A DNA stretch of 60,830 nucleotides, filler included, from Stramenopiles sp. TOSAG23-3 (Eukaryota): assembly GCA_900128585.1 (NCBI GenBank). It is 6 parts of 6 records of this genome, joined end to end, with 100 filler letters (N's around TTAATTAATTAA, not from the genome) between each part and the next. Parts side by side here need not be neighbours in the genome. Positions count along the whole stretch, not along the records: positions 18,401 to 36,600 come from LT642432.1; 5 more parts are not named here. The stretch is one strand, 5' to 3'. Position 1 is the stretch's first letter. Every line of letters begins with the position of its first letter. Positions 18,401 through 54,157 of this stretch are shown piece by piece. The notes below the pieces were generated by a model, which was not told the DNA's origin, did not search any database, and worked only from the letters and a program-made list of their open reading frames with translations. The position numbers and the translations under genes were made by a program.

Positions 18401-18401
18401 G

Positions 18402-21400
18402 GCCAATCAAGCAGTAGAGTACGGTGTACTTTTCGATGGGCCAAGCATTGGATCGCAGTTTGAGATAACCCGAATATCCATAAATAAAATGGAAGCAGGA
18501 TCGTATGGGTGTGCTGCACAACACCTTCAACAACGGTGTATGCTATTTAACAAATGCGAGTTCCCTTCTGCGGGACTGCCAAAATCGTCCGCCGCAAATG
18601 ATAAAAATAAACTTAGTTTATGCCTGCTGCGAAATGGTTGGAAGAACTCGAGTCAACTAGCTCAGCTTCAGCTAAGTGATATGAGAGATCTGCTGGTTTC
18701 GCACTTACTTGCATTTGGAGAAAATGTTGTGGAAAATGACGAAAGCATAAATACACTTATCTCTATGTGTCCAAGCATGGTCGGGGCTAAGCTGTATTCC
18801 TCGAAGACAAATACAATCGTTCGATCTACTAACGGGGCCGGAGCCTTCCCTAATGACCTTCTTCAATTGCATCTGCATGACCATTTCACCATTGAAACCT
18901 CTTCTGGTGTTCTCTTTGATAGCCCAACCACAGAAACGATGTGGACTCGGCTTTCGCCCGGTGTCTTTAGGGGGGTTAACGTCTCGGCATGCGCTATTGT
19001 TGAGATATCCATTAGTGCACACGATGGGTCTGTTGTATCCTGGTATGTTCGCCCTGTTCAACCCATTTCCGGGTACCCCACAAAACGTTATGGGCATACA
19101 AATGGGTTCTACCCTAGTGGAAAATTAAGCGTGACTCACAAATACTGTTTGCCGCATGGAACATACCGGTTCGTAGCCCTCTCTACATCAGGAATTGGCT
19201 GGAGTTCTAAAGGGTTTTACGGTGTTACGTGCCGTAAATTTGCCCATCTTGGTGGGCAAATTTTGCTCCCAGAGTCGCCATTAATATCAACATTCAATCA
19301 GGATTTAACGTTTTCAACTGCAGTTTGCCATCGAAGTCCCACTTATTTGTATGGAGTTCGAAGTCCTGAAGGGAAATGGCAGCATGTAGATTGGGAAGTC
19401 AAACGGGTGATTGATGCGAGCGGCGTCTTTGATGGTATCTTAGTGGAAGAAGACGTTTACCATAAAGACAAGGGGGTAAATCATCTTGTGATTTCTCCGA
19501 GTGTCCCATCTTCGTTTGTTCGAAGTAAAGATCCCCCTCTTATGTTCGCTTCGGATGGTTTCGTAGTAATGGATGTAGAAACCCTTGCAAATGAAATGGA
19601 CTTTGTAGCCATATTAGACGTAGACGTAGAGTCGGCGGCTATGGTTGTTGGCGGAGAGGACCATAGAATATTTGACTACAACGCATCCCTAAAACAGCAC
19701 GAAGAAGAAGTAGGATACAATCATGGGGGAATCCAGTTAATGAGATCTGTGCTTAGTAAAGCCGAAGCAACGTTTGCCGTAGCAATGACTCAAGGGGATT
19801 TTGTAACCCCAGTCATTGCAGCATTTGATAACTGTGCTGTGGTACTATCAGGAAAGCGGGTAGGGATAAATATAGACACAGAATCATGGGTCCAAAACGA
19901 GGTGCCTTTCCATGTAGAAGAAACGTTTTTATCTGGGATCATATGGTCGTCTTATGATTCTAATAATTCACTGTGTAGTTCCAAAGTGGCTGCCCCAACA
20001 TTGCTGACAATAGAAATTTCGCCTACAGACCCCAGTGCAAATACGGCAGTGTTGGCTTGGACGCCTGGGGACAGTAAATGCACGGACAATGGACTCATAT
20101 TCTTGCGATGGGAAGTACAAATGGGTACGTCTCCGTACGATAATTTTGTTACAGTTCCTGGCTGCGATACGGCCGATCGGTACACAACTTTAGAGTGCAC
20201 AACAACAGAACTTATCAGAGATTCGTATGTTGCTTTCAGGGTACGAGAAAGATGTAATCTGGAACTGGCGTCAGGTATTTGGAAGCGTGTTTATAGGCAA
20301 ACCTTCAGCCCGCGGGCAGGTAGCCCTACTTCATTTCTTGCTGAACCATATGGCCATCAATCAATGTATCTCTCATGGGTGCCTTCGACAACCTCTTGCG
20401 CCAGTGCTGCATCTGTGTTTCAGAGATGGGAAATTAACATTGGTGTAGTCGGTGAGGAAAATAGCTTCTTGGGACCAAGTGGTTGCACTTGCCTAACGAA
20501 CCGCAGCTTTTCTTCATGCAATGCCGTGAACTTGCAATCAGAAACCCAGTATTCTTTTCAAGTACGAGAAGTGTGTATGACGGATGATGAGATTGCCGCG
20601 CCGTTTAGGTCAGGCATTTTCGTAACAACAATTACCGCCCAAACCTTGTCGGGGCGCGCTTCCCCACCAGAAATATTTTTCGGTGAAACCAATGTTTCTT
20701 CGACATTTATCGATGTAAGATGGGTACCTAATTCTATTGGCTGTGTCGAAGCTGGTTCCTCTTTCTCCCGTTGGATTGTTGAGTATTTAGACATCTCCAT
20801 TCCTGGAACTGTATATCTTCCTGCTTCCAACTGTGCGTCAAGTAATTTACCCCGGACAGCCGGAAATGAGTGCATATTGGCTGGGTTGCAGCCCCACCAT
20901 TCATACATTGTAAAGATAAGAGAAATGTGCACTGATTCGACACGGGCCAGTGCCCCCCAATATTCAGATGCGCATGCTACCTGGGGCTCTTCGGCCGGTA
21001 GGCCGATTGAATTACGGTCTGGATCAGCAGCTAGACCATCTGACGGTGTTGTTTCAGTGACTGGAATACATCGCATTTCGACGGGCATACTTCGCTTAGA
21101 AATAAGTTCTGTACATGATTTTAAAAAAGGGGACACAGTGGCATTAGAGGGTATTACATCAAACAGAAGTGTTGCCATTGATAAAGTGTCAGAGATTGTT
21201 GTCACCTCCTTATGCCTTCAATCGTCAGACCTTCAGCATGTGAGCGATTCAAAAGTTGTGTTAAATGCGGAGTTTTGTGATGAAGATGCATTTAAAAGGT
21301 GCGTTATCCTCCCTGTGGCTTCCACATACCCAACTGCAGAACAAATTTTTGCGGGTCTAGATTCTAGTGGCGTAAATGCGTCGTTTCGATCAAATTTACA

Positions 21401-24400
21401 ACAGTCCACGAATATCAATGTTGGTGGTTTAAACCCTAATACAGAATACAATGCCCACTGCGCGATGCTTAATGGCAACGGAGACTTTATTTCAAATGAA
21501 AAGGTTGCATTTCACACCGCATTTCAAAATTCAATATCAGAACAGCCCCGGATCGTCCAATTGACGGCATCACTATTGATTGTTCGGGTGACTTTTTCGA
21601 CTTCGGGTCTGGCTAGATGTATTATTGTACCTAGTGACACACTGGTTGAAGATGCTTCGTTCGTAATGGACGGAACAAACGGGGCGATAAAAGGGGCGCC
21701 ACCGGCCAGTGCAATGGCATCTCACGGAGATCCCTTCGAAGTAACATACGATATTTCGAGCCCAATAACAGATGCTGGTACACAATATGGCGTTTTCTGT
21801 GCCCAGTCTGCTGTTTTAAGTGGGAAAACCGCGTTCGTGGCCCCTTTCATTATCAGCCCAGTGAACCTTCTTGCAAATTATGTACATAATGGCCTTGTCT
21901 ACGCGACGTTGTCAGTACATTTCTCAAGCACAAACGAGTCGAACTGCATAATTTCGACTTCCGGGACGTATGTTTCAGCGACTGCAGTCGGCTCATGCTC
22001 ATCTAGTGGTGTGTTGCACCCGAGTGTGCCACATATTCACACGTGCTTCGGCTTATCTACCAGCGATTTATACTTTGCTCATTGCGTCCAAAATGGAATT
22101 GTAACAACTAGCATACAATTCGGTGCATTGTCGGCAAACAAAAGCCCAAAGCTTTCAAACTTGTCTGCAGCGCCAATTTTGAAGAAAACAGTGGCCAAAA
22201 GAATAGACAAAACCAGCGTTGAATTAGTTACAACCTTCTCAGGCTCTGGAAATTCTCGTTGTGTAGTCACGCTGCCAACATCGAGCAATAACATTAGGGC
22301 AAGTAGTATTCTTGACGGTTCCGCCCCCGGGGTTGTTGGGACCCCGCCTGTTTCAACAGAAGTAGAGGCGGGCATAGCACTCACCGTTGTCTATCCTGGC
22401 CTCAACAAGGGAACAGAGTATGAAGCATACTGCGCCCAAAACGGTGTGCTAGGAAACAAGGTGGCATTCGTAACTGCGTCGGATAATAGTATTATCGTGC
22501 CCCCGAAAATAACTAATAACCAGGGCGATAAAGTAGAAATAACAGTGGTTTTTGCTACTACGGGGATGGCTCGTTGTTGTGTTCGGCGCATTGAAAATCC
22601 ACCCAGCGTTCCATCAGCAACAGATATTTACAGTGACACGTCTGGAATGGCATACGCTGGAAACCTTCCTCCGCTTCAATCCGCAACAGGAGGCGACGCG
22701 TTTGTGCAAGTTGTACAGGGTTTGGCACCTGGGACAACATACGAGGCTTACTGCGCGCAAAATAATGTCCTCGGAAGTCGCCTTACATTTCGCACAAGAC
22801 CTCAGTCCCTTGCGGTCGATAACATCGTCAAACAACCGTCGCTCATTGCAGCAGGTAGTTTTTGGGCAAAAGTGACGGTGGCATTTACAGAAACGGGAAA
22901 CGCACGGTGTGCAATATTGAAGAGAGCTATAGGCGATGCCGAACCGTCTGCGACGCAAGTTTTGGGTGGGGATTTGGACGAATCTGGGGCACATATTCCA
23001 AAGATTCATGCTTTCGGGGGTTCTTCCGTTAATTTTACGTTCGTTGGTCTTTCCCCTGGGACTTCTTACGTTGTCTACTGTGCACTGGATAATGGGAATA
23101 GCAATTTCCCATTGACTCAAGCATTAAATATTGAAACATCTTCAATCTTAACACGGCCAGAGCTCGTCCAATACGATGACGGTGTTGCGATAATATCAGT
23201 AACGTTTTCGAAGGGGGGGGTCGCAAGATGCGCTGTAGTCCATTTTGACAACGTTGCGCGCCCAAATCCATCAGATATCCTAAATGGGGCAGTCAGTGGC
23301 TCCGTCGGTAACTCTTCTTCGGCCATATGGGCCAGGGGGGGAGTTCCCCAAACGTTTCGACATTCGAACTTGACTTCCGGGAGATTATACAAAGTGTACT
23401 GTGCTCTTGGGGACCTCGTCACTTCTGAAGTACAATTTTATTCGAGCTCTGTTAGAGAAAGTGCGCATGTCCATGAGTACGGCAGCAGCAGTGTAACAAC
23501 CAAAGTAATATTCGGTGCGAATGAATCCTCACGGTGCATTGTACTACCCAGTGGTTCTCCGGTGCCTAACTCAGAGCACATTGTGAAGGGCTTGAACATA
23601 TTTGGAACGCAAGCCGCGCATCTCACATCGTTAGACACACGTTACACTAAGACAGTGTCTGGATTGAGTGAAAACACTAACTATGACGTGCATTGTGCAC
23701 AACCACTAACGGTTTCATCATTTACTTTCCAAACGGCTCCTCAAAATATCTTGACATCAGACTTAGTGCCCAGTGATGCCAAAGGAACGTCCGTTAAGCT
23801 ATCAATAACATTTTCTTCAACTGGAACATATTCATGTGCCGTAGTGACAAAGGGGTCGACTGCGACGGCTGCAAACATATTAGACGGTACCGTTGGGGGC
23901 AAGATTGGCGCAGGCGCTACTGGCACAGCTGTCGGCGGTGCGTCTGTAGATTTGGTGTACAATAATCTCTTCCCAGGATCGATATATGACGCGTATTGTG
24001 CGCAAGGGTCGCTATTATCAAATCAGGCTAGCTTCGAAACCGATGCAATATTGAAGCCTCTTAAACTGGAGAAATTTTACGATGCAGAGCCGCGCGTTTC
24101 GATAACATTTTTAAAGGCGGGTTTTGTTCGATGTGTCGCTTTGGAAACTGCAGCAGCAAGCCCAACAATCGATACCATTTTGAGTGGCAATGTTGCGTCT
24201 CCAAAAAGTTACCCCGTTGGTTCAAACGTACATGCTGGAGTCCCGTACAATGTAGGGTTCGTTTCTTTACAAAAGGGAACCAACTACAACATATATTGCG
24301 CAAAAGACGGTATTCGCAGCGAAACATTAACGATTGTCGTCAGTGAAATAGTCTCTCCGTGCAAGGTTGTTCAGCAAAGTTTGAATACTGTAAAGATTCA

Positions 24401-27400
24401 AAGCACATACTCTGGCAGTGGCACAGTAAAATGCATTGTTCATCAAGATGACGATACAAACTTAAATAACACCGAAGTTTACGAAGGTTTACTTCCCGGA
24501 GTCCGCGGGGTGGTGCCGGCAGCCTCCTCAAACATTGCAGAGACGCCGCACGTTGTGGTTTACGGGGGGCTGGCTCCAAATAAATGGTACAGAGCAATGT
24601 GCGCACAACAGGGCGCGTTTCAAGTGAGTGAGCAACGATTTTTTTTAGACCCTGAATTTTCAGACCTTGACAATATTGTGATCACTGATATTTATAGTAA
24701 CTCCGTCAATTTCAAATATAAATTTTCACTGCCTGGCATATCACGGTGTGTCGTAGTCACTGGCAAACCCTCAATTGACTTAATCGAGAGCTCCCAAATA
24801 ATCTACGGGCCTATGGCCAATATACAAGGATTGCCAGCGAACTACAGTGCTGTTTCGTCCCATACGAACTATGATATTTCGTATGGAGGTCTGTCTGCAA
24901 ACACCGAGTATGAAATTTTTTGCGCAGTGGAGAGCATCGTGGTGCGATGTAAAAACACGTTTCGAACGTCGCATATAATCACCCATACTGCATTCATACA
25001 TTCGTTTATCAATCCATTGAGTGTAGATGTTGGTGTTCAGGTTGCAGTGACATTTGGCAAAGCGGGCCTAGCGCGCTGTGTCGTTTTACCGACGGAATCC
25101 CCTGCACCATCTAATGCAGGACTCATCTTGAATGACGATGTGGCAAATTCCCAGGGAAACCCGTCTTCGAAGAAATGGGCATATAGCGATGTACCGTTTA
25201 TTTCAGATCATACTGGGCTGGTTGTTGGCCATGCATATAGAGCCCATTGTGCACAGGGAGATCTTATATCCACCTCCATAAAATACTTAATAATTGGTGG
25301 AATAAATATGCAGACGAAAATTATTGAAGTTGGCCCAAGGCATGTTCGATTGGAGACCCGTTTTACAGCTGCTGGGAGCGCCAGGTGTGTGTTACTAACG
25401 AAAGGTTCAAATGTGCCAACCAGTGACCAAATTTTGCAAGGTTATAATGCTGTTGGGGTGAGCCCTTTTCCAATACTATTAATTTCAAACCAAAGCTACG
25501 TTGTTTTGTATGAAGGGTTGCAGCCTGGTGCCAAGTATGATGCCTATTGTGCAATGCGAAACGTTACGACAGAACGATTGCGTGTTCAGACATCATCTAT
25601 ACGTACTCCTCTTCGTATTTTTGAGAAAACTGGGAAGTCTGTCACCATTGTTGTCTCGTTCACCTGTGCGGGGATCACCCGATGTGCAGTTGTAGCTGCG
25701 GGATCAATTTCTCCAAAAGCATCCGATATATTGAGCGGTGTTGTCATTGATGCATTCTATTCAGCACCGATAAATGTTAGTGCCAATTCCGTGGCGATAC
25801 ACAAAATAGCGAGCCCACTAATGGTGCCACGTAACGAATATGATGCGTATTGTGCCACGGCTGGTATATTAACAGGCGCTAAAAGATTGTCTACTTCAGG
25901 GGGGCGTTTGCACGTAAGAACTAATGGCGTACATAGCTTTAGAGGTGGTCAAAGTGTATCGTTTGGGTCTTACAGTGGACCTTTGCCCTTGAAGACGGGG
26001 GTATTCCGTGTTAATAGACAGACGGGGAGCATTCCGAACGGACTCTCTTTGAGCACATTGGTGGATTACATTCCTGCAGAGGCTTGGGGTACAAAATCAA
26101 TGGGACACGTACAGAGGGTAACAGAGGAGTCGAATTTACATGGTTTGACCGTCGTGTGTGACAGCAACTGTAACGAGAGGCTGTCATGGCCACATTCTGC
26201 ATACATTGACGTGCAAGTAGGTATGTTTTCGAGTTTGTCGTGCTGCAACTCCGGTTGTGAGCAATATTGCGACTTATCTTGGGGAACGCTTCGACCTGCA
26301 GGCAACAAATTCCGAAACATTCTATCCGTGTCCTGGCGGGAAAATAAGTATGACACCTGTGCAAAATCTGGGAGCACATTTAGTAGATGGGACGTGCACT
26401 ACAAACGTTTAGAAGATGGAGCAAACTCGTACACTGCTGCTCCAGGATGCACGAACCTTGTTTCTCTGCCTGACACTTTTTGCGACGTTGACGGTTTGTC
26501 TGCCTCTTCATGGTATAGTTTTAGGGTTAAAATGATTTGTGCCGACTCCACTTCTTTTGACGAAAACACTGGAGGTAATGTAGTTCTTCCACTTGACAGT
26601 CCATGGTCCGAAGACTCGGAGTACTCATTTGCCCAAACACAAGTAAGTGGTCCTAGCCCACCTGTTCGTTTGACAACTGCTGAAAGAGCTGGGTCTTTGG
26701 TGTTCAGTATTGTGGCGATGAACATTGATCCCACTTCCACATTTGTAAAAATAAATACCTTGGGGCACTCATTTTCGGAAAATGAGTTGGTTTATATTAC
26801 AAATATTCCAGATGCGGGGCCGTCTGAGTTAAACGACATTGTGTACACCATAACGGGGGTAACAGAATCTTCATTTCAATTATTGAATATCACCTCGCTC
26901 TCAGTCAGTGGGACGTTCTCTGGGCAGGCAACTGAGTATAGCGGCATAAGAACTAATGAAACCATGTCCATTGTCTGGCAGCCAAGTGAAATCGAATGTG
27001 ATGTGGCAAAACCAACATCACAATTTGTACAATTTCACCCGCAATACATAAAAGTCGGGGACCCTATAGATGTAGTATCTGTCTCTGTTAATTCTGGGCA
27101 AAATGTTGAATTATCTTTGTCGTCTTTGGTCGCTGATTCAAACTTCTTACCCGGAGACAAAGTTGAAATGCAAAATTTGGCATCGGACGCCCCACACGAA
27201 CTTAAGAGTCAAACATTGTACATCCATGAAACCACAGACTATGGCATATCTTTGAAGGATATCAATACATTGAATGGGAGCATTTCCTTCACATTTACGG
27301 CTGTCAATTTGACTGTATCACATGCCTTTAAAAATGTTTCTGGAACAAACCCAGGCACAGCTTGCCACCATTGGCACGCCAGCAATTCTCGAAAACACAT

Positions 27401-30400
27401 CCTTTGTATTATGGAGTTGCTGACACCGAACACGTGGATCCAATTTAGGGTTCGAGAAATTTGTTCGGACAGTGGGGCATCCAGTGATTTTTCGGAGAGG
27501 TCAAAACCAATTAAGACTCTGGCCTCTTTTGCTCTTCCTCCATTGAACGTTAACCCGGGGCCGTTTGTATCACGGACATCCATGGGACTCAGCTGGGCTG
27601 GAGACGACAGTTCGTGTGTTTCTTCCGGTAGTGAATTTTTGAATTGGAAGATTGAATTAAGAGAAGTGGAACAGCTCAGAGGCGTATACATGGCACCTCA
27701 TTATGACATTCCATGGCGGGGTATTGAAGGAGACTGTGATAATGGCATATATAAATACGACTCAACCAGCTGTGTTGCTCCTGGGTTATTGTACAGTTCG
27801 AAGTACGCCTTTCGGGTTTCCGAAATATGCACCGATTCTGGGTTAAGCAGTGGACCTTCCAACACTAATGAACTTGTAATTGCCACGGATTCGTTTTGTG
27901 ATCCAGGTTATAGAACCAACCCTGTAAAACGGGACAGTTGCGTTGCGTGCGTTGCAGGAATGTATAACAGCGAGTTCGGACAAGATAATTGCAAAAACTG
28001 TGAAAATGGAAGGTTTGCGACGAATATGGGTATGGCTAAATGCGCCATGTGTTCTCCTGGCAAGCATGGTGTTTTCAACGAAACGGCTGGTTACTTCAGC
28101 TGCGCTCTGTGTAAAAAAACGGAATACAATGACGAATTTGGTGTGCCATACTCTCCCGGGTGCAAGGCTTGCCCGCACGGTCGTATGGCAGACGTACGAG
28201 GTCTGGCAAAATGCAAGAATTGTGCAGTTGGCAAGTATCAACCCGCAAGTGCAGAAATAGAATGTATACGTTGTAGCATAGGTCTATTTGCCGACATTGA
28301 AGGCATGTCTGAATGTGTGCCGTGTTCTAAGGGAACCGTTGGCCCATCGCAAGAGCTTAGCAAGTGCATTGGATGTGTCCCTGGAAAGTACATGGATGAA
28401 ATAGGTAGCACCGATGGGAGCTGTAAAGAATGCGATACTGGAAAGTCTGCCCCGTCAAATAACTCCCATATATGCACATCCTGTTTGGCCGGGCGGTTTG
28501 CTCAAAACACCTCATCAATAGTATGCTCGTTGTGTTTGACTGGTCAGTCGCAGTCTACCTCAACTAGTTCCAATTGTGTATCTTGTCCGAAGGGGCGGTT
28601 TACGAATATTCGTGGATCTACAGGTTGCACCAATTGTCCCACTGGTCGAACTTCCCCGAAAGAAGGAAGCACAGAGTGTACCTTGTGTCCTGGGGGGAAA
28701 TACAACAATATCCCAGGAGCTTCCACGGACTGCCTAATTTGCGTGAGTGGGAAAGATGCCCCGTTTGAGGGTGCCACAGAGTGTAGAGCTTGCAAGGCCG
28801 GAAGATTCCACGCAGGTGCGAGTGGAACGGAGGCCGAACCTTGCCAGGTGTGCGCCCTCGGTCAAGTAGCAAAAGGGACGGGAAACAGTGAATGTGAGAC
28901 TTGTTTGCCTGGGAAAATATCCAAGTTTTTAGGGGGGACATATTGCACGGAATGCTCTGTTGGTTTCTATACCGATCAAGCTGCTCAATCCGAGTGCAAA
29001 ATTTGCTCAGCGCAGAACAAGCACAGTAACTCTCCGAATCGAGATGACGTCTACCAAGACGAAACTGGGCAAAGCGACTGCAAAATATGTTCCAGTGGGC
29101 GAGCAGCTCCCGGAAGCAGCAGCTGTATCACTGACTGCACATGCTCTGCCGGTTCTTATAGAGACCAAGATAATAAATGCGCAGACTGTCCGTTCGGAAT
29201 GCAATGTGTCGGGGACAGCACTGATGATACTCCATGTGACTGCTCTGAAGGCAGCGCAACCGCCCCGTTGGGAAATCGCTACTACTGTCCCGTGGGCACC
29301 AGCGCCCAAAACCAACTCGTCGTTCTAGACGGGCATAGGATTACTACATCAATTGGCGCATCGGATTGCGATGATAAAGTAGGGATTAACTGGTGCTCCT
29401 GCACTCGTGGAGCAGTTGCGCTTTGCGAAATGGGGAGAGAATGCACATGTGGAGAATCACGAAAATGTCCTGCAGGTAAGTTTTCGTCGCGAACGGGCAT
29501 GTCCGAATGCAGAAAATGTGAAGCTGGCCAATATCAAAATGAACTGGGGAAAACGGAATGTAAAGTCTGCCCCAAGGGGTATAAATGTCCGTATGGAGCG
29601 CCCGTAAAATTTGACTGCTTCGAAAACTATACCTGTATTTCTGCTGCGCTTGATAAATGGGATACATGCGTCCAACGCGTTGTAAACCGAGAACAGAACC
29701 ATCACTGCGATGATGTCGGTGACGCAACTAGTGGTATATTGAGTATCGCTTACACTGAGTGTGATAATGCCACAATACTTGGAGGGGGGGAATTTAAAGG
29801 GGCGAAAGGGAACCTAACTGCTATTAGAGGAGCAGACATATGTCCCCGTATGGAGAATATCAATTACTTCTGTAAAGATGGGGTAGATTTAGAAACTGCT
29901 ATTCCCGCCGGATCCTTTGGGGTCAGCTGTGATGAAAACCACGAGAACTGTGATGACAAATGCCAAAGTAACTGCAACGATATCCAGGGTTGTCTGGCTG
30001 GCGAAATGTGTAACAACGGCCGTAGAGAAAGCTGCTCTGTAGGGAAATATGCTGAAGGATCAGGAAACGCCATTTGCTTGAGCTGTCCCCCAGGAAAAAT
30101 TACAAATGTTATTAAGCAGGCAGTATGCCTAGAGTGTCAAAAGGGACAGTTTTCTCCAATCAGTGGAGGATCTGTGTGTGACGATTGCCCTGCCGGTTAC
30201 GCAGCTGACTTGTTAGGATCCGTCAGTTGTGACGCATGCGTTCCTGGCCGCTATAGTGCCGTCCCCAAAGCCGGAAGCTGTGATGGCTGCCCCATGGGGA
30301 AATTTTCGAGTTCTGAAAACTCCACTATGTGTACGCAATGCCGTGATGGAACGGAAACGCCCGGTATAGCTTCACCTGAATGTCTGTTATGCCCAAAAGG

Positions 30401-33178
30401 AAAGTATTCCGTAGGTGGACTGGCGTGTAAAAGTTGTAAAATAAACGAATTTCAACCTGATCCTGGGCGAACGGTCTGTGAAAATTGTCGCTGTGGTAAG
30501 GTCTCTGCCGTCGGTTCGTCGGCTTGTAAAGAACCCGTGAGTAGAGATGAGCTTGCGGTTATCAAACCCCCTCAAAGCATGGTCTATTTCGCTCCGCAGG
30601 CTATCCGCATCGATTTCAACCCATTAGAGCAGTTAACAGGTACTTTGATCTTCTATCTAATAGAATGGTCCAGCACTATACAAGATGGGGTTCCTGATTT
30701 TAGTGCTACGTGCTCTGGAAATGCGATCGTAGTATCAAAATTTTGTGAAGCAGACGTTGTAAGCAAAAGTGAAGCAGTTTCCGATGGAAAGACGGTGTAC
30801 TTTGAAGTTGATTGGGACAAAGACAAGGACGACTATACGAAATTCTCTCCCCAGGCGCAGACAAGGACGACTATACGAAATTCTCTCCCCAGGCGCAATC
30901 TATGACTTTAGAGGAAGCTATGAAAATAACACACCCTGTTGCCGTACGAACTTCAACCTCTTCGAAAAACTGTTTTGCGACAATGACGCTTGACCACTAC
31001 TTGCATAGCAGACATTTCTTTTTTCGACTTGTTGCAGTAGTAGAATGGCTGGATTCATCGGATGAAAAGGACTATATTGTTCGTGCTGAAAGTGATCCCT
31101 ACTCTATTCGTGAGTCTTTTACATGGCCTGTAAGAGTGGACTGTGTTGATCAAGACGAGTACTTGGAAACCAGGGACGTAAATGGACCCAGCGGATGCAT
31201 TGAGCGGGGAATGGAACCTATATGCCAATGGAAAGAGCTCATAGATCCGTTCGTATGGCGCTGCGAGCGGTGCCCGTATGGCGGGGACTGCAAAGGTCAA
31301 CCGGCTTGGATGCACGTGAAAGCCTTGTTTGGTTTTTGGAGAAATAAGAACTTTACTGGAATTACAAGGTTTCATCGATGTCCTGTTCCTCAGGGCTGTT
31401 TAGGGTCAAATAACCCCGCGTTCGTTGATTTGTATATAATGAACGGTACTGACAACCTTGCTGTAATTGATCATGAAGAACGATGTCATTCGGAAATGGG
31501 TTACAGTGGCCCATCGTGTGCAGTGTGCAGAAAGGGTGAATTCTATATGACAGCTAGTGGTTGCCGCACATGCGAGGGTAAGAGTGGCGGAAGCATCGTC
31601 CTGTCGATAGCGACCATGGTTGGTGTTGGCCTTGCAGGTGCGTACTTTATATACAAGTTTCGTTCCCTAGCCATAATTGCCAAAGATATCCAAAAAGTGA
31701 CAAAACTAGTTATTAACTTTTTGCAGGTAATGACATCCATAAAAAGTGTATATACGCTAGAAATCCCCAGCATGAATATTGGGTTTAGTATGTCTGCGTA
31801 TTTTGAAGTGTTCAGTTTTGACTTTGTAGCAATTTTTGGCTTTCCGTGCCTGTACGAAATGACGTATTTTGAGAAATATGCGGCCGACATGTCAATGCTG
31901 ATTGGTTTTGGTGTTTTCATTCTCATTGTCTACGCAATAGGGTTGGTAGTGTTGACTATCCGTAGCAAGAGAAAAAAGAAAAAGGGGATAGATCCGGCCG
32001 CAAAAGCACGCCTTGAAGAGATGATGGCAATGGGGGGTGGGAAAGGAATGTTGAGCATGTTCAAAAATAAAAACCCGGGAGGCAAAGTGACCGGGCTGAA
32101 CCGATGGGCCAATGTGCGAAAAGGCTTCCGAGCAGTGAGTATGTTTCGATCCCAAAAGCTTAGCGCGAAGGTAACACTTCAGAGTCGAGCCATGGCGGTA
32201 GGTTTTCAATGGTTCATGTTTCAGCACCAACCAACTTCTGTAAAGACATTTAATATGGTAAAATGCGAGTACCTGGACGGGATTTATATGCTTCGGCAAG
32301 ACTATCGACGAATCTGTGGGGGTGGGGAGTACGTCCCGTATTTTATGTTTGCCATGGTAGTCATTGGTATGTATATTGTAGGACTTCCAACGTTCATTGC
32401 AATCTACCTCGTGAAAAATAAAAGAAATTTGGCCGATCCCGTAATTAGGAGCAAAGTTGGGTTCCTTTACGTGAACTACAAGCCATCCTCATTTTTATGG
32501 GAGGTACAAATTTTGGCGCACAAGTGCTTACTCACTGGGGCGCTAGTGGTCATGTATCAGTATGCCATTGTCCAATGCACACTGGCATTTGTTATTGCTA
32601 TTCTCTCCCATTCTATGCATGCTCTGTACAGCCCCTTCCGGATAAACCTGCTGAATAAAATACAGCACTGTTGCCTATTTGCCACATCGGTTGCATTCGT
32701 TGGAAACCTTGCCTTTCAGTGCGCTGTAAACAACAAAATGGCGGAAGACAATTTCGAGGAGACCTTCATTCGTAATACGCTGGTGTACACTTTTGTGGGC
32801 GCTTTGTTTCTTGCCTTTCTGGGAACCATGCTGGCTGTGAGCCGTAGCGTGAGGAAGTACAATGTAATAATGAAAGAGAAAAAACTTGAGCGCAAGAAGA
32901 AACGGGAAGCCAAGCGGAAAGCGGAGTTAAAACGGACAGGACAAAGGGACATGGCTCATAAGAAAGTCTTTGGGGGCAAAGATGACGAGGGAAAAACACC
33001 GTTTCGCCCAGGACAAATGCGCAGGATAAAGCCAAGAACAATTAAACAAGTCTACCGAGATAACCCGGCCAAAGCGCTGCAGTCGTTTCATGTTAAGGGC
33101 AAAGGCGCCGGAGCTGAAAAGAAGTCGAAAGAAACAAAAAACTCCTCAGCGCAAAAGCCCGAGTCTTTTTTCATATAG
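18402..33178 (+). CDS. Giant cell-surface protein: FN3-like domains, 15 tandem ~95-aa repeats, TNFR/ephrin-receptor-like Cys repeats, multi-pass TM C-terminus. 5'-partial; frame broken by a 38-bp duplication
   Basis: Frame is open from the contig edge (18402). ORFs 18489-30905 and 30812-33178 join in frame if one copy of the exact 38-bp tandem duplicate is removed (4883 aa from ATG 18489). CxxCxxG(K/R)(Y/F) repeats at ~27900-30530; about 7-8 hydrophobic helices at 31590-32850. Confidence 0.85.
30821..30896 (+). repeat. Exact 38-bp tandem duplication causing a frameshift
   Basis: agacaaggacgactatacgaaattctctccccaggcgc at 30821-30858 and 30859-30896. Confidence 0.95.
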
Positions 33179-33781
33179 AATGCGGAGAAATGTGGTAGTA
33201 TATATTGTAAAAAGATATTGAACTTCTGCAGCTAACAAAGGATCACTAAAATAAAGCCTGTGTTAGAGTTAAAACTGGGGCTACGCCTCACATCGTATTA
33301 TTTATATTATAGAATTACCGTAGTCCATAGTAGATCTACCTAAATCGAAGAATAAAAAATAATACGAGGAGGAGGAGGAGGTAGATTATTTATTTCTAGA
33401 AGACGACTGTGGTATTTATAATAAAAACAACGAGACGACGACGACTGATGATATTATTATAATAATAAAATAATATAGTAGTAGTAATATTAGACTATAA
33501 TATTTAATAAATATATAGTCTAATAAATAAATAAAAAAAAAATAATAATAAATGATCATTTTTATATTAGTAGTAGTAGAATTATTCAGAGAAGTCTTTC
33601 TTCTCCAGCGGAGGATGGATTGTATGAAATGGTATAAGGAATGATTAAAAGAATTTGTCTGAAATTGCAAAAGCTGAAGAAATAGAGAGAGAAAATACAA
33701 GTTTGCGTTGAAATAGAAGAAATATAGACATTTTTTTGGGGAAAGAAAGCATCGCGCAGTCGTCGACCATTGTATAGGTTC

Positions 33782-35128
33782 ATGGGGGCGTACTTTTCTA
33801 GACTGTTCCAAGCAGTGCGAAAGAACCCATTTTTATCTGGGGTGACTTTTTCACTTTTGCTGTTGTTGAGAATTCCCAACTCGCGGAAAATTAAAGGGGC
33901 GGAAAAAATCGTTGCCTATTCTGCGTTCTTAAAGTCTTTGCAAGCTGGCAAAATCATAAAAGTGCTGTTTTCGCACAACTCGGTTCAGGGTAACGGAGCC
34001 TACAAGTTTTGGACAAAAGACCTGCCAGATGCGGTGCAGCACACAATACCAATCACGGAAAGTAATGTTGGGGCTGGCTTAGTGAAAGTAATGCAGAAGC
34101 AAGAAGTCAATTTCTCTGTCGGGTCACCGCCCTTGAAATCAAAGTTATTGCCCGTTCTTGTTGCCAGCCTACCGTTCGCGTATTTGCTTGCAATGGGTGG
34201 TTTATTCTACAAAATTTACAAAGATACTGTTGGTGACGTCGGCGAAGAGACTGGCGCCCATAATTCTTCCAGTGGCGACGGGCATATTCCCCGGGTAACA
34301 TTTAAAGATGTCGCCGGTATTGACGAGGCAAAAGCTAGGGTTGTTGAAGTGGTAGACTTCATCAAGCACCCTGAAAAGTACGAGCGTTTAGGTGCACAAT
34401 TAAGCAAAGGAATCTTGTTGGTAGGACCTCCAGGGACTGGGAAAACGTTGCTCGCTCGGTGCATTGCCTCTGAGGCGAACGTCCCTTTCTTTTATTGCAG
34501 CGGTAGCGATTTCGTTGAAGTATATGCCGGGCGCGGTGCTAGCAGGGTTCGTTCGTTGTGGAAACGAGTGCGAAAGAGTAGCCCTTCTTTGCTATTTATT
34601 GACGAGTTGGATGCTCTTGGGGGCGCCCGTGGTCAAGGGTTCAGTGGAAACGAGGAGCGAGAGCAGACGCTGAACCAGTTGTTAACGTGTATGGACGGTT
34701 TTGATACAAAAAACAGTGGGGTTGTAGTGATTGGAGCCACGAACAGGTTCCAAATGTTAGATCGTGCTCTATGTCGTCCAGGAAGATTTGATCGTATCAT
34801 TAAAGTCCCACTGCCAAACTTCAGCGGGCGAAAAGAAGTTCTAAAGGTCCACCTCAAAAACAAACCATGCTTGACTACCAGGCTGAATTTTGATGTACTG
34901 GCTCGTGAAACCAAGTCATTTTCTGGAGCGGAGCTGGCGCACGTTGCAAACGAGGCAGCGATTGCTGCGACTTTGTGCGATGCCAGCGGAATTGAACAGC
35001 GGCACATTGAACTCGCAATTGCGCAGTACAAAAATTCAAGAGCGATGCCTGAAGAGAACAGCAACGAACAAGCAGAATTTGACCTTCACGATATGCTGAG
35101 ACACTTGTCGCGGACTGCGAATTCATGA
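33782..35128 (+). CDS. FtsH-like membrane AAA ATPase lacking the M41 protease domain
   Basis: Two TM segments flank an FtsH_ext-like region. VTFKDVAG, GPPGTGKT, LFIDELDA, EREQTLNQLL, RPGRFDR and FSGAELA are present. The ORF ends ~35 aa after the lid with no HExxH. Confidence 0.9.
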   Translation: MGAYFSRLFQAVRKNPFLSGVTFSLLLLLRIPNSRKIKGAEKIVAYSAFLKSLQAGKIIKVLFSHNSVQGNGAYKFWTKDLPDAVQHTIPITESNVGAGLVKVMQKQEVNFSVGSPPLKSKLLPVLVASLPFAYLLAMGGLFYKIYKDTVGDVGEETGAHNSSSGDGHIPRVTFKDVAGIDEAKARVVEVVDFIKHPEKYERLGAQLSKGILLVGPPGTGKTLLARCIASEANVPFFYCSGSDFVEVYAGRGASRVRSLWKRVRKSSPSLLFIDELDALGGARGQGFSGNEEREQTLNQLLTCMDGFDTKNSGVVVIGATNRFQMLDRALCRPGRFDRIIKVPLPNFSGRKEVLKVHLKNKPCLTTRLNFDVLARETKSFSGAELAHVANEAAIAATLCDASGIEQRHIELAIAQYKNSRAMPEENSNEQAEFDLHDMLRHLSRTANS

Positions 35129-35272
35129 AAAAAGAATTAACCTATTAAAGATATCGGTCTTGTCATCAGCTCGGAGTTATGAGCATGAGGATGTAATAAA
35201 AAAAACAAATTATTAATATAGTGTACATGCTTTAAGATAAGATAAAACTGAGGAAATATTTTAGTTTTTTTT

Positions 35273-36598
35273 TTATTTCTTGCGGTCGGGAAAAGGCTTC
35301 ACAATAATATCATCCCTGCGCTTGACTCTTTCTCGCAAAAATACCTCGTAGAAACCAATCATTGTCAAAGGGAAGAGGACTAAGGTCAAAATCGCTATCA
35401 AAACGATTATTGCATAAACTGCATCGACACCGCCGTGCCTGTTTTCCCTGAGCTTTGGCAAACTGTCTAGTGGAGAAAAGGCTGGTTCTGGCTCTTTTTT
35501 TGTAGTTGCCAATACATCGGCTTGTCTTTGAAGACTTTCAATGGCTCTAGTTTGTTCGTTTGCTGCGGCAATTAAGATAGCGCTTATTTTTCCGTATTGC
35601 ACAGATTTAAAGCCGTCCTTGTTGGTAATCACAACACTAGGGAAAACTTTTTCAACTTCTTGCGCAATTACTCCCAACTGCTCTTCAGGGGGGAAACTTT
35701 TTTCTGGGTATTCGCCCGTTCGATAATTGTAATAAACACCACGCACTCTTTTTAGCAGTTGGCACGAATTGTTTAATTGGCGAATATGCTTCTTCCACCT
35801 TCTGTCCGAGGAGGATGCCACTCCATTCGTCGATGTTATGTTTCCTTTAACGTTCAAAGCTCCCCCGATACCAACTCCGCCACTTACAACTAATGCTCCA
35901 GATTCTGTGCTCGTAGACACTGTCTCAGACGTTAGCTGAACGACACCAGACGCCTCCAGGGTCGTAACTCCAGAAACTTTTCCATTGTCGAAAATCACAT
36001 TTTCAATGCTTACTTTTTGGCTCGTGGATGTAATGCTCAAGTCAGAGTCTCCAGTGTGTTCGATCTCATTGCCTTCCACGGTAACTTTACCTACCACTGT
36101 CAAAGATGACAAAGACCCCACGCTTGTCAGCGCTGAGCTTAAAACGGTGCTACCTAGGGTATCCTTTGATAAAACTGTAGTGCCGCCTATAGAATACACA
36201 GCATTTGTGGATTCTAAGTCGAGTTTTTGTTTATTCAATGTCACGATTTTATCTACAGAGCCACCGTCCGCAGTGTATAATAAAAAATCCCCAACTTCGC
36301 TTCCAGCATTTGCGTTGGAGAGAACTGCTTCTAACTTGGCAACGACTACTGGATTCCCATCGGTATTTTCAGACTCAAATGAGATTCCGACCCCGATGCC
36401 AGCTTGACCGTTCCCACCATCACTAGTCGTATGAGATAAAGTCAACAAATCCACTCCATCGTTATTAACTGTGTCTTCTTTTTCGGCTAGAATTTTAGAT
36501 CCTTTTATTTCACCTAGAGACGAGTACACCACGGCTTTGCTGTTGACAACCGCTCCTGCAGACGATCCGTCTAGAAGGTTCAACTCCGCTGTGGTGCT
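35273..36598 (-). CDS. Tail-fibre-like protein with peptidase S74 intramolecular chaperone domain, coiled coil and C-terminal TM helix (5'-partial)
   Basis: SSDRRWKKHI, VRGVYYNY, LGVIAQEVEKVFPSVV and KSVQYGKISAILIAA form the S74 signature. Upstream motifs AELNLLDG..NSKAVVY, SSALTSVGSLSSLTV and STSTESGALVVSGGVGIGG. TM helix AVYAIIVLIAILTLVLFPLTMIGFY. Frame is open to the contig edge. Confidence 0.85.
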   Translation of the reverse strand, partial: STTAELNLLDGSSAGAVVNSKAVVYSSLGEIKGSKILAEKEDTVNNDGVDLLTLSHTTSDGGNGQAGIGVGISFESENTDGNPVVVAKLEAVLSNANAGSEVGDFLLYTADGGSVDKIVTLNKQKLDLESTNAVYSIGGTTVLSKDTLGSTVLSSALTSVGSLSSLTVVGKVTVEGNEIEHTGDSDLSITSTSQKVSIENVIFDNGKVSGVTTLEASGVVQLTSETVSTSTESGALVVSGGVGIGGALNVKGNITSTNGVASSSDRRWKKHIRQLNNSCQLLKRVRGVYYNYRTGEYPEKSFPPEEQLGVIAQEVEKVFPSVVITNKDGFKSVQYGKISAILIAAANEQTRAIESLQRQADVLATTKKEPEPAFSPLDSLPKLRENRHGGVDAVYAIIVLIAILTLVLFPLTMIGFYEVFLRERVKRRDDIIVKPFPDRKK

Positions 36599-36600
36599 TG

Positions 36601-36700
36601 NNNNNNNNNNNNNNNNNNNNNNNNNNNNNNNNNNNNNNNNNNNNTTAATTAATTAANNNNNNNNNNNNNNNNNNNNNNNNNNNNNNNNNNNNNNNNNNNN
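36601..36700. other. Artificial contig linker
   Basis: N44-TTAATTAATTAA-N44. Confidence 0.98.
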
Positions 36701-49848: not shown

Positions 49849-52800
49849 TCAAAGCAGCTTGGCATCGTCCCAAACCTCTTGTTTCCCTTCTAGGTCTGTG
49901 AACGTTTTGGTGTCGCGGTCGTATGTACCAATCATGTTGCTCTCCCCGCTCTGGTCGATTTCATACAACTCTTTCTCTTCCGTCGTGACCATGTACTCCT
50001 TTCCCCCATGGCCAACCTTGAGATGGACGTAGTTGTACGGAAAGGCGCCATATTTTCCATCGAGCTTTCCGTGCCACCACCCGTCGTCATCAATCGGCCT
50101 CGTCCGCTTTCTCCTGGATAGACTCTTTGCTCGGTTTGCCCTTTTCTGACAAATGAGATTTGAACGTTTTCCTGGCTCTCTTTCCTCGCATGGCAGCCTG
50201 GATTTTGATAGCTGCAGCTTCTGTTTCCGCCAATTCCGTGTCGACTTTTTCCTCGGTCGCGTGTGGCTGGGCCTCCGGAGTTGTGGACGTTTTTGCTTTT
50301 TCTTCCGCTGGCTTTGGGGGTTCTGCCTTCTTCGGAGGTTCCTCCTTTTTCGGAAGCCCGGCCTTCTTCGGAGGTTCCTCCTTTTTCGGAGGCCCGGCCT
50401 TCTTCGTTGCGGAGGCCTGGTTATTTTCTTGGGCAGCCGCAGTATGATCATCCTTTCCACTGGGGAAAGAATCTGCAGCCTTCTTGGTTTCTTCGTACAG
50501 CCTCTTCGATCGCTTTTCCCTCCAATTACCCTTTGCTTTGTTCGCATCTCCAGGTTTTCGCGGCGATATACTTCCTACCACATTTCCGTCTTTGTCTAGC
50601 ATAGAGTCGCTCTCATCGTTCAAAATTTGCCACAAGTCAGCAATTTCCTGCTCCACGCTCTTTTTGTTTCGATCGATTTCTTCTTGGCTCGGTCCTGCCC
50701 CTTCCAACAAGGCCCAATTCGACGCAGTATTGTCCGCGGGTGGCTGCTCAATGGCCACGATGTCACTGCCAAGCGCTTTCCGGGCCGCTTCAAGCGCGCG
50801 TTCCTTTTGTTGGCGCGACTGCGCTCGGGTTGTATAACGGTCCTTTTTCCCGCTCAGGTAATCCCATGCCTCTTTCACGGACTCTTCACTCTCTCCGATA
50901 TCTTCGTTTCGCCCAGAAAATGAGGAAACCCCGTGCTGTTGATTCTTCGTTTTTCGTTTTCTTCTTCTGCGCATGCCAGAGGTTGGGTCGACGACTCTCC
51001 ATACCAAAATAGTGTTGTCCATTCCACCCACCGAAACGACGTGAGTGTCGTTTGCAGAAAATCTCACGGAGCGAACGGAGGAGGCATGGCCGCGATATGT
51101 CCTGGCCTTTGCCGATTTAACTGCAGGAAACCGAAACAGGTTGACGCCGTACGAATCGTCTCCGGTGACAAGGAGCTGGTGCGACTTGGAACGGTTGCAA
51201 TCATGGAGACGCGAAACGTCTGCCATCAACGTCATGCTGTTTTGTTGGTAAGGCAGTTGCCCGTCTTTCGATTTTAAGTCCAGCAGCCATTCGTCGTTCT
51301 TGCGGTAGTGGTTGAGCATGAAACTGGCCTTTGTTGACTCCCCACTGTCACGGGTGGTCCCAGTCTTCTTCCGCGTCTGCCACGCGCCTTGAACGGGCCA
51401 CCCCAAAACACACGTCCACGTGTTCCATTTTTCGTCCCTTAAATTGTACGCGTCCCGCTCCTGGCGCCCAGTCGCTACATTCCAATAAAGTATCTCCCTC
51501 GCGGCGTCGTTAGACATCAACGTCCTTCCATTTTCCGAAAAGTCGACGTGAGTTACCCCGCTGGAATGCCCTTTGCAGATACGCTGAAGGACATAGTGGC
51601 ATCTGTATGAACTATTTGCGGTCTCTGCTCTATACAGATACACGTTTTTGTCGTGGCACCCAAAGGCAAGTTTCAGCATGTCGGGAGAAAATTTTACAGC
51701 AGTAATGTTCATCTCCAGAGTTTTCGGTCCACCCCCATACCTTCCGAATGCCCTGTGCCGAGGAGAACGGGTCCCCCAGTGATAGTCGTGTTGCCGTGGG
51801 CGCTTTGCAATAACCTTGGACTCATGTGCGGTAACAGAGCCGGCAAAAATAAGCTCCAGGGCCGGCGGGTACGTTGCCTGCACACCGTAGACAGCAAACG
51901 ATCCAGATTTCATCCCCACCGCAAGAAGCGTGCCATCGCCAGAGAACGCAATCGCACTTCCTTGCACGGCCAGTTTCGCTTGGGCCAATACCCTTCTTTC
52001 TTTGATGGACCAGAGCCGCACGGTCTTGTCGTGGGAGCAGGTTGCAAAAACAGGGAGTGTAGGGTGAGTGTCGAGCGCCTCGACGCACTGGCGGTGCGCG
52101 TGCAGTATTACGGTTGGAGCAATGTCCTCCGACTCGTCACCTACGATCAGGTCCAAGATACCAGACTCGGCAGCGCAAATGTACAGTTTCCGACCGTAAC
52201 TTAACATCCCAAGCCCGTGGGAATCAATAGGGATTGTCAGCACAGGAGTCGGGCGTTCAGTAATTTCATATACGTCCCAAATGACAATGTTGTTATCCTT
52301 TCCCGCACTAGCAAATTGTACCTGGCGCTCGGGCCCCAAACTCTGCATGGTTTCCAACGCCGTGATTGCCAACCCAGAGTGCACGTCTTTTATAGAAACC
52401 CCTTGCCAAGCCACCGGGTCCCACCCCATGATGACATGGTCGACCAAACCTCTCTTGGAATTCTCCCGTGGCACAACCTTGGTTGCTCCTTCTTCCACTT
52501 GCTGGTGCCAATAGGCGATGGTTCCCGTAGACGACCCGATGACAAGAGCCCCCCCCCCGCTCTTGTCATTCAGAAAGCACATGGACAAGGACAGCTCATC
52601 GCTACGTCTGTATCCAGCACTGGATCTACTTTCACACAACGCACCTTGCAATACCCATGATTTCGACCCATTTATTGGGGTGTCCTCCATTTTCTTGGCA
52701 CGCGCATGGTACCCAACTCGCCCGGTCGAACCATCAACGTTTGGGTTACGAAAGGAGGGCCTCCATTGGCCACGGGAAGACTGAAATGGGGTCCGCTCTT

Positions 52801-54157
52801 TCTCCGCCAGGGTCTGCTGCTCCCCATTTTCCGCGTATTTTAATGACCACACTTTTGTGCTCCGTGCCCCAGCCGTCCCGATAGTGTAACATCGTCTGCT
52901 GAAAGGGTCGTCGGGATCGTCTATGTACATTTGGTACGGGTTAAAGCGAGCATTGTAGATTGCAGAGGGGCCGCACTTTCCCTCCACGAGCCGTTCACCT
53001 TGAACCCAGTCCCATATCACCAATGTGTGGTTCATGTCCTCGGACACGGACAACAACAAGTTGCCGTCTAAAGAAAAGTCTAACGAACTTGCCCCGCCGG
53101 TTCTGTCGAGTCGAAGCTTGTTCAGGATTTTTGGTCTCTTGTGCACTGGTTCGCCAGCATGCGTCGGAGAAACCAGCGGCGCCTTTGCACTGCCGCTGTT
53201 CCAAATGTAAATGACAGGGTTTCGTCGCGAGAACTGACTGCTGGCGACGTACACGCCGTTAGGGTGGACACAGACGCACGCCACCTCCGCATCGTGCTTT
53301 CGGAAAAACCGTTGTTCTAGGCGACTGTCGTCGTGCACGACCACGACGGCAGCGGCCGGGAAGACAATCTCTCCGCTCCCCAGCCTTGCAATGTACGCTT
53401 TGTTCGAGGTCACAATGGCCGCCTCGGAAGATTTCCCGTATCCAAAGACCCAATCCAGCAACAGCCCGTTGTCCGGTGGGACCAGGTCTAGTTTACTCTT
53501 TTTGTATCTGCTCGGTCGGAACACGGTGCTTCTGATTTCGTCTTTCGTCTCCGCGGCTTCCTCTCGCGCTCTAGATTTGCTTTCTTTCTCGGCCCACTTG
53601 GCTTCCACGTTCCGCGCCCTGTCGCGCGGGGAGGTATACCCTTGATCTTGCATGCTTATTTTCGCAACTCTTGGCACGTTTGGGTTAATCTTCAACCGCC
53701 CCGATCCATCTCGGCGGGAATCGTGCCGGTTGCGCTCCACCAGGCCTAACATCTTGTTGTGTTTATTTATATCCGGCAGTATACGAATCCCGTCGCCCCG
53801 GATAGATTTACTCTCGTACCCCAGTCTATTCTTTCCCGTTAATGTCTTCTTCGAAAGCATCACGCGACCATGGCTTGTTTTCGGTGTAAAGTACTTTGAC
53901 CGGTTTCTCATTTGCTCTTGATTCAAGACCCGTCTTGGTGTTCGGTAACCTTTGTCGGGAGGCAAATACCTATAACGCGGCGAACGCTTCGAGCTGGGAT
54001 TGCTGCTGCTGACGGAATCTTTCAGCAAATTTGCAACCTCTTTCAGGGATTCGTGCATTTGAAGCAACACTTTATCCCGTTCTTCAAAGCCCTTCGCAAC
54101 CCGAGTATCTACAATAGACGCCACCGCATTTCGAAGCTCATCGTTTATTTGAGCCAT
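49849..54157 (-). CDS. EML/EMAP-like protein (HELP + WD40) with IQ motif; C-terminal half-SH3 in another frame
   Basis: LLLDWVFGY (HELP), QRFFRKHD, GHSSGVTHVDFS, WNTWTCVLGWPVQGAW, YRGHASSV and SVGGMDNTILVWRV motifs; IQ motif AAAIKIQAAMRGKRARK. Main frame stops at 50090. DDDGWWHG...GAFPYNYV follows in a different frame to 49849. Confidence 0.85.
50325..50405 (-). repeat. 36-bp coding tandem repeat (PKKEEPPKKAG)
   Basis: gccttcttcggaggttcctcctttttcgga(a/g)gcccg occurs twice. Confidence 0.85.

Follow-up and report, generated by a model that had tools for sequence, protein, structure and literature searches.

Peptidase_S74 domains are known in two settings: in the fibres of phages and protist viruses, where they are discarded after folding, and in MYRF, where the domain releases a transcription factor at the cytosolic side of the endoplasmic reticulum (ER). 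Phage fibres and tailspikes, such as the T5 fibre protein pb1 (6f45 and 4uw8) and the K1F endosialidase chaperone (3gw6 and 3gud), carry an S74 domain with a Ser-Lys motif of the form SD..xK and a C-terminal helix. MYRF and MrfA of Dictyostelium have the eukaryotic version of the domain (S74/ICA) directly before a transmembrane (TM) helix, and MYRF is described in the available text of PMC3742443 as a type II protein with a cytosolic N terminus and a C-terminal domain in the lumen. Long, modular, repeated fibres ending in a single Peptidase_S74 domain are also known from polinton-like viruses (PLVs), virophages, and giant viruses of protists, according to the available parts of PMC12220804, PMC12906663, PMC13659346, and PMC13620141. 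Here we describe a gene found in a 60,830-nucleotide stretch of DNA (filler included; below, the window) from assembly GCA_900128585.1 of Stramenopiles sp. TOSAG23-3, in which a phage-type fibre with an S74 chaperone is followed by a membrane helix and a short basic tail. We consider it probable, although far from assured, that this is a cellular gene of a marine protist and that its product, a type I membrane protein, is the precursor of a homotrimeric fibre of great length.

In the window, the gene (the fibre gene) is seen as a minus-strand open reading frame (ORF) at positions 35273 to 36598, with 441 codons and a stop codon at 35273 to 35275. The ORF is open at its 5' end and is the 3' end of a longer gene, the 5' part of which is cut off by a block joining two pieces of the window. 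All of the motifs quoted in an earlier reading of this stretch, made from the sequence alone and here called the original prediction, are present in the translation (e.g., TAELNLLDG). The Pfam profile PF13884 (Peptidase_S74) matched amino acids (aa) 264 to 323 with an E value of 1.2e-13 and 51.5 bits against a cut-off of 22. The sequence SDRRWK at the start of the domain supplies Ser264 and Lys269, five residues apart and aligned with SSDRRIKK of 6f45, and the pattern SD.R.K is retained in the S74-bearing rows of our alignment of relatives (alignment A1). The S74 domain that the original prediction had proposed was thus recovered by a hidden Markov model search, and both dyad residues are present.

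Among solved structures, the L-shaped tail fibre of phage T5 comes closest by sequence (6f45; E value, 8.8e-12; aa 245 to 363), followed by the ICA domain of MYRF (7dc3; E value, 3.8e-5), i.e., the domain is nearer to the S74 domains of phages than to that of MYRF. In structure comparisons with Foldseek, the best matches of the S74 part were 7dc3 and the T5 fibre 4uw8, and a protein atlas comparison returned only viral S74 clusters, at 0.88 to 0.91. The AlphaFold2 model of the monomer had block-mean predicted local distance difference test (pLDDT) values of 84 to 92 at aa 271 to 360. The helix at aa 335 to 366 lies within the T5 chaperone alignment, as judged from the AlphaFold2 model and the 6f45 match, and is therefore part of the chaperone rather than an extra coiled-coil domain; the full chaperone of the original prediction is present, and its separate coiled coil is not.

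Downstream of the chaperone, aa 388 to 421 form the sole stretch with a 19-residue Kyte-Doolittle mean above 1.6 (peak, 2.9), and a helix was modelled by AlphaFold2 at aa 390 to 429, as expected for the single TM helix claimed earlier. The protein ends in the basic tail noticed before, RERVKRRDDIIVKPFPDRKK, in which 9 of the 20 residues are basic and 4 are acidic; the net charge is approximately +5 in the tail, whereas the residues that precede the helix carry approximately +1 to +2. A C-terminal di-lysine ER-retrieval signal was considered and rejected: the tails end in RKK, TKK, ASK, or LLY, none of which matches the canonical KKXX spacing of such signals.

The part preceding the S74 domain is fibre-like by profile. 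The partial protein matched 25 PHROG families, 17 of which are tail-fibre, long-tail-fibre, or baseplate families, and some of these matches start upstream of the S74 domain (aa 45 to 365 and aa 120 to 362), so the label rests on profiles and not on appearance alone. In the stalk and module region, the tail-fibre families extend back to aa 45 (phrog_1980; 2.7e-18), and the last fibre module is common to the close relatives in alignment A1. As in the phage fibres, the S74 domain of the window protein follows a beta-rich fibre, and T5 is its best PDB sequence match.

The missing 5' end was recovered through a relative, P0274, a protein of 2056 aa encoded on a 24.4-kb contig, which belongs to the same 90%-identity cluster and is 99% identical to the window protein in its C-terminal part. 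Its N terminus, MPWIARLCVPVAIIICASAS, is hydrophobic and signal-peptide-like, and is followed by ~1,850 residues of repeated fibre modules, eight of them anchored by IGVG; five of the modules are 211-aa units that are 98 to 100% identical to each other. The repeats matched phrog_30158 (2.3e-60; eight stretches) and the virion structural family phrog_6002 (5.8e-33). A metagenome contig, L001, runs continuously across the window's cut into the fibre repeats. In EukProt, the public gene models split the fibre gene into fragments: g1378.t1 has the same N terminus as P0274, and g1379.t1 has the window's own VVYSSL variant and reaches ~190 aa further upstream than the window cut. Two other searches of whole P0274 added little, with nothing useful from NCBIfam and nothing beyond the S74 domain in a PDB sequence search. 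At position 36522, contigs of DNA run X3 and RNA run X16 continue into an internal-repeat version of the gene, and the X3 depth at this position is 28 versus ~7 elsewhere.

Three side observations concern the repeats themselves. The near-identity of the 211-aa units (aa 626 to 1680 of P0274) implies a very recent tandem expansion or concerted evolution; their copy number differs between short-read assemblies (two in L001 and five in P0274); and the X3 depth suggests approximately four extra copies.

An S74 domain followed by a TM helix is also the arrangement of MYRF, and 7dc3 is the best Foldseek match, which raises the question of whether the gene encodes an ordinary membrane-bound transcription factor of the MYRF/MrfA type with its DNA-binding part in the missing 5' end. 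The full-length proteins P0274, P0280, and P0123 gave no Pfam match to Ndt80/PhoG or MRF_C at E ≤ 0.01, and because the full-length protein has no Ndt80 domain, the fibre gene is not a MYRF gene. The signal-peptide-like start, the presence of only 20 residues after the TM helix, and the closer sequence relationship to the T5 fibre speak against such a factor as well. This reading is already refuted unless P0274 is a different gene; the shared part is 99% identical and L001 is continuous across the cut, and we give it a negligible chance. As the original prediction had it, the S74 domain has a fibre as its cargo instead of a DNA-binding domain. A cut at the S74 domain would, as in MYRF and MrfA (PMC3742443, in its available text), free an N-terminal trimer. 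Unlike that of MYRF, the released part would be lumenal or extracellular, since we infer a signal peptide and a type I topology, the reverse of the MYRF orientation.

A trimer was modelled from three copies of aa 60 to 385 with alignment A1, our own alignment. The interaction prediction scores from aligned errors (ipSAE) were 0.89, 0.90, and 0.89, the best of three controls reaching 0.00; the pLDDT of the partners did not fall below 87, and at least 95% of the contacts were common to the runs. The mark for such scores was reached by 20 of 30 solved one-chain pairs and by 1 of 23 solved single chains, a calibration that is only rough for a three-copy job with its own alignment. In the model, contacts are dense at aa 121 to 262 and in the chaperone and sparse at aa 60 to 120, a pattern that would be expected of an intertwined stalk with a peripheral domain.

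The predicted layout is shared by a small family. A search of 1.84 billion representative sequences yielded 27 proteins at E ≤ 1e-30, and among the 150 best relatives matching an S74 probe, a hydrophobic, TM-like segment follows the S74 domain in seven: P0274, P0280 with fragment P0122, P0004, P0276 with fragment P0005, and P0126. P0138 was taken for an eighth and was discarded as a false positive caused by a partial domain match; P0123 has a weaker segment after its S74 domain (Kyte-Doolittle, 1.49). All three full-length members (P0274, P0280, and P0123) have hydrophobic starts (Kyte-Doolittle, 2.29 to 2.74), which agrees with the lumenal or exterior orientation proposed in the original prediction. 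Judged by these segments, at least five distinct relatives appear to have the same layout, in which a signal peptide precedes the fibre and a TM helix follows the S74 domain. A quick maximum-likelihood tree built from the S74 region placed the window protein, six of these proteins (P0123 among them), and one fragment in a clade with a Shimodaira-Hasegawa-like approximate likelihood ratio test (SH-aLRT) value of 96. The tree kept 131 of 151 rows; those dropped were 17 partial domain matches and the fragments or duplicates P0003, P0005, and P0122.

Two very long repetitive relatives, P0124 (3291 aa) and P0125 (2349 aa), are encoded on one 377-kb metagenome contig and have a distinctive C-terminal motif in common. 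Neither has a signal peptide, a TM helix, or a Pfam S74 match. They may be fibres of a giant virus or of a cell and would make useful outgroups.

The setting of the gene is cellular in type. The piece of the window at 18401 to 36600, which contains no N, carries only the fibre gene, an FtsH-like gene, and a gene for a giant receptor-like protein; the original prediction was right that eukaryote-like genes share the contig, with the restriction that these two alone are truly on the same piece. Two metagenome contigs, L001 (8,282 bases) and L002 (6,042 bases), are collinear with positions 29943 to 36600 at 98.7 to 99.5% identity and have the same three genes in the same order (giant receptor-like, FtsH-like, and fibre), and a 2,487-base contig from run X3 covers 33485 to 35981, from the FtsH-like gene into the fibre gene. 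The linkage to the FtsH-like gene, which the original prediction had wanted confirmed, is thus repeated in all three. The position of the gene at the edge of a piece and the composite nature of the window could point to an assembly chimera or to contamination, with a fragment of a phage or bacterium fused to eukaryotic DNA. Since the fibre and FtsH-like genes are linked independently in L001, in L002, and in the X3 contig, and the piece itself has no N, a chimera is very unlikely; moreover, a tblastn search with the fibre part found no match in a collection of 50,697 phage records, a negative to which the BLAST low-complexity filter may contribute.

Marine metagenome runs of numerous studies contain the organism: the locus, whole or in part, is present in 20 of the 24 listed runs, these 20 being from 14 studies, and 2 of them are flagged as possible sources of the DNA. 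Genes for Tub, EML, an Rrp42-type RNase PH (an exosome subunit), a CCT-motif protein, and ferroportin lie on other pieces of the window. The nearest named relative of the Rrp42 protein, 67% identical, carries the EukProt label of a marine stramenopile (MAST), MAST-4, and the protein atlas places Rrp42 as eukaryotic and nothing finer. The host is probably a marine protist, a stramenopile related to MAST-4, if Rrp42 is a fair guide.

There is also a hint that the fibre gene is transcribed. RNA contigs from three libraries in three studies lie on it, most at ≥99% identity and none with a joint: those of X15 cover 35323 to 35973 and 36500 to 36598; those of X16 cover 35868 to 36134, 36254 to 36471, and 36522 to 36598; and those of X20, an oligo-dT run, cover 35508 to 35824. 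In the same three runs, contigs are practically absent from the FtsH-like gene and from the intergenic stretches, an absence that has no bearing on expression.

The fibre gene could instead be viral, i.e., it could belong to a giant virus, a PLV, or a virophage and be integrated beside host genes or lie on a viral contig; its signal peptide and TM helix would then put the fibre precursor into the ER-derived membranes from which virions of this kind form. S74-terminated modular fibres are reported to be ubiquitous in the PLVs of most protist groups, although not found in those of ochrophytes, parabasalids, and amoebozoans (PMC12220804), and to be enriched in giant-virus genomic islands (PMC13620141), as far as the available text of these papers goes. 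The nearest relatives without a TM segment are very long and repetitive, two of them being on the one 377-kb contig. The GC content at third codon positions (GC3) of the fibre gene, 0.41, is the lowest of 16 ORFs, the adjacent giant ORF having 0.416, and its upstream side lies beyond the available sequence, where an adjoining viral element could stand. The correlation of its relative synonymous codon usage (RSCU) with the rest of the window is 0.42, compared with 0.30 to 0.73 for the other 15 ORFs, and the codon composition is decisive neither for nor against foreignness.

Nevertheless, we regard a viral gene as unlikely. Neither of the two downstream genes is a hallmark of viruses, and the gene order is repeated in three other assemblies. 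While the locus is so widely present in the listed runs, no relative of the fibre part, the FtsH-like protein, or the C-terminal part of the giant protein was found among the 2.9 million contigs of IMG/VR. The long repetitive relatives P0124 to P0140 have no hydrophobic start above 1.81 and no hydrophobic C-terminal segment above 1.45 (Kyte-Doolittle). The layout of the window protein and its family, with fibre and S74 domain between signal peptide and TM helix, occurs in a single clade only. The known fibres of protist viruses are encoded in viral genomes or elements, and no TM anchor behind the S74 domain is mentioned in the available text of the four papers cited for them above, whereas the neighbours seen beside the fibre gene are cellular in type. 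The same holds for the comparison with phage fibres: the fibre gene adjoins eukaryotic cellular genes and adds a signal-peptide-like start, a TM helix, and a basic tail, all absent from the non-TM relatives checked.

Besides the low GC3 and the unseen upstream side, several points weigh against a cellular gene for a secreted trimeric fibre. The S74 clade comes from a quick tree search only. The pointer to the host lineage is a single protein, Rrp42, from another piece of the window. The RNA libraries may include DNA, and their contigs give neither strand nor level. Cysteines are nearly absent from the fibre part, and the 441 aa contain no more than two N-glycosylation sequons, which is unusual for a eukaryotic extracellular protein; the signal peptide was called from visual inspection and hydrophobicity only. 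The AlphaFold2 monomer is confident at the chaperone and the TM helix only (mean pLDDT, 60.7, and poor outside the S74 domain). Finally, the trimer score shows likeness and not binding, because similar complexes have been solved (6f45, 4uw8, 7dc3, and 3gw6) and the prediction may reflect them.

If the fibre gene is a cellular gene for such a precursor, its product could mature as follows. A signal peptide, suggested by the N termini of P0274 and of the EukProt fragment from the same genome, would take the chain into the ER, where the C-terminal helix would concentrate the chains in the plane of the membrane. The S74 chaperone would join three chains and, starting at the C-terminal end of the triple-stranded fibre, template its folding, as homology with T5, K1F, and MYRF and the trimer model suggest. 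By the same homology, the Ser264-Lys269 dyad would cut between Ser263 and Ser264. A fibre of ~1,858 residues per chain, as estimated from the full-length protein, would be freed into the lumen for export, and a 178-residue stub consisting of chaperone, TM helix, and tail would be left in the membrane.

The last steps would not occur if the fibre were permanently anchored, with the S74 domain serving only in trimerization and its cleavage blocked or regulated, so that nothing is shed. The TM helix and short tail are retained in the TM-bearing relatives, and a regulated inhibition of S74 cleavage has been described for MYRF of Caenorhabditis elegans (PMC12803276, in its available text). However, the window protein and the aligned S74-bearing relatives have preserved the Ser-Lys dyad and the SD.R.K pattern, and this motif accompanies cleavage in the characterized members of the family, which makes permanent anchoring rather improbable in our view.

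The window consists of six pieces (18300, 18200, 18139, 1897, 1897, and 1897 bases) with five identical N44-TTAATTAATTAA-N44 blocks between them, at 18301 to 18400, 36601 to 36700, 54840 to 54939, 56837 to 56936, and 58834 to 58933. Because the second of these separates the pieces, the sequence past 36700 cannot be taken as a neighbour of the fibre gene. The near-equal sizes of the pieces suggest trimming to length rather than natural contig ends. The features of the fibre gene and its neighbours are listed in Table 1.

Table 1. Features of the fibre gene and of the adjoining genes, in window positions
Feature	Position	Strand	Basis or remark
Last fibre module and predicted triple-stranded stalk (aa 1-263)	35810..36598	-	Starts with TAELNLLDG and ends with NGVASS, directly before the predicted cleavage site
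Peptidase_S74 intramolecular chaperone, C-terminal helix included (aa 264-366)	35501..35809	-	PF13884, 6f45, AlphaFold2, Foldseek
Ser264 codon	35807-35809	-	Predicted S74 catalytic residue
Lys269 codon	35792-35794	-	Predicted S74 catalytic residue
Juxtamembrane linker, probably flexible (aa 367-387)	35438..35500	-	pLDDT <50 at aa 368-391; unconserved in alignment A1
Single predicted transmembrane helix (aa 388-421)	35336..35437	-	Kyte-Doolittle; AlphaFold2 helix 390-429
Basic tail RERVKRRDDIIVKPFPDRKK (aa 422-441) and stop codon; predicted cytoplasmic	35273..35335	-	Translation
N44-TTAATTAATTAA-N44 joining block that truncates the 5' part of the gene	36601..36700	.	~1,615 codons absent, judged from P0274
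FtsH-like AAA ATPase without peptidase M41 domain, convergent neighbour	33770..35128	+	PF00004, TIGR01241
Giant Ephrin_rec_like/fn3 membrane protein, next neighbour	18489..33178	+	ORFs 18489-30905 and 30812-33178 in the window

The FtsH-like protein (448 to 452 aa) matched PF00004 (4.6e-43) and TIGR01241 (1.9e-114), the latter at profile positions 13 to 401 of 598 only. It has no peptidase M41 domain, and none is listed for its relatives at 59 to 61% identity. With a basic N terminus and one hydrophobic segment, it may be an organellar, protease-less FtsH derivative.

The giant neighbour, a protein of ~4,900 aa, is built of fn3-like units and many Ephrin_rec_like (GCC2/GCC3) cysteine repeats, and no Pfam family matched the long, hydrophobic stretch of 788 aa at its C terminus. 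A giant receptor-like surface protein thus adjoins the FtsH-like/fibre locus in L001, in L002, and in the window. A tandem duplication of 38 bases (approximately 30812 to 30905, with the junction at 30859) distinguishes the window from L001 and L002, so that the peptide DKDDYTKFSPQAQ is encoded twice. The duplication shifts the frame, and the gene is therefore split into ORFs of 4138 and 788 aa, whereas in L001 it is in one continuous frame; an error of assembly or a frameshift particular to the strain may be the cause. Elsewhere in the window, a 273-aa ORF on a short piece (56945 to 57766, plus strand) belongs to the EML second beta-propeller family, as does the 1380-aa EML-like gene on piece 3 (50090 to 54232, minus strand); it may be a paralog or come from an allelic or duplicate contig.

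Taken as a whole, the original prediction is largely supported, and the fibre gene is likely to be a viral module domesticated by its host. The S74-terminated modular fibres of protist viruses were already known; what appears to be new, as far as domain layout and hydrophobic segments can tell, is a membrane-anchored fibre protein of secretory type that is encoded by a cell. None of the titles and abstracts found in full-text searches of the open-access literature described a cell-encoded protein with a signal peptide, a fibre, an S74 domain, and a TM helix, and the words phage, S74, fibre, and fiber do not occur in the available main text of the MAST genomics papers. A surface-adhesion role of the S74 domain has been raised before, in a Chlorella secretome study cited in the available text of PMC13620141.

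As a first guess, the exported fibre could be an adhesive surface or coat filament. According to the available parts of the MAST genomics papers, the lineage of the nearest named relative consists of uncultured marine flagellates that are predators or phagotrophs. A coat filament, a mating adhesin, and a virus-blocking decoy would fit our data equally well.

Phage fibres bind bacterial surfaces, and Bdellovibrio bacteriovorus has cell-encoded, phage-fibre-like trimers on its surface that are used in prey recognition. Among the Foldseek matches were Bdellovibrio fibres, three of them (8onf, 8ol4, and 8oml) with E values of 0.018 to 0.059 and probabilities of 0.96 to 0.99 and two (8ond and 8onb) with E values of 0.6 to 0.7 and probabilities of 0.15 to 0.25. 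These fibres differ from the window protein in being bacterial, and the likeness is weak and structural only; Foldseek says little about the fibre modules because only the S74 and TM parts of the AlphaFold2 monomer are reliable. A speculative and, in our estimate, doubtful extension is that a bacterivorous flagellate uses a phage-type receptor-binding fibre on its own surface for prey capture, as a eukaryotic counterpart of the Bdellovibrio fibres. If this were true, a phage chaperone would have become an assembly platform of the secretory pathway that is tethered to the membrane and removes itself, and the five near-identical 211-residue repeats would tune the reach or avidity of the fibre and vary rapidly between strains.

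More generally, the fibre gene would represent a third use of the S74 domain, in which the fibre cargo is kept, as in viruses, but is made in the eukaryotic secretory pathway by a chaperone tied to the membrane in the orientation opposite to that of MYRF. A phage-like adhesive fibre made by a cell would bear on prey recognition or virus resistance in small ocean predators, and the protein would offer a simple system for the study of membrane-templated trimer assembly.

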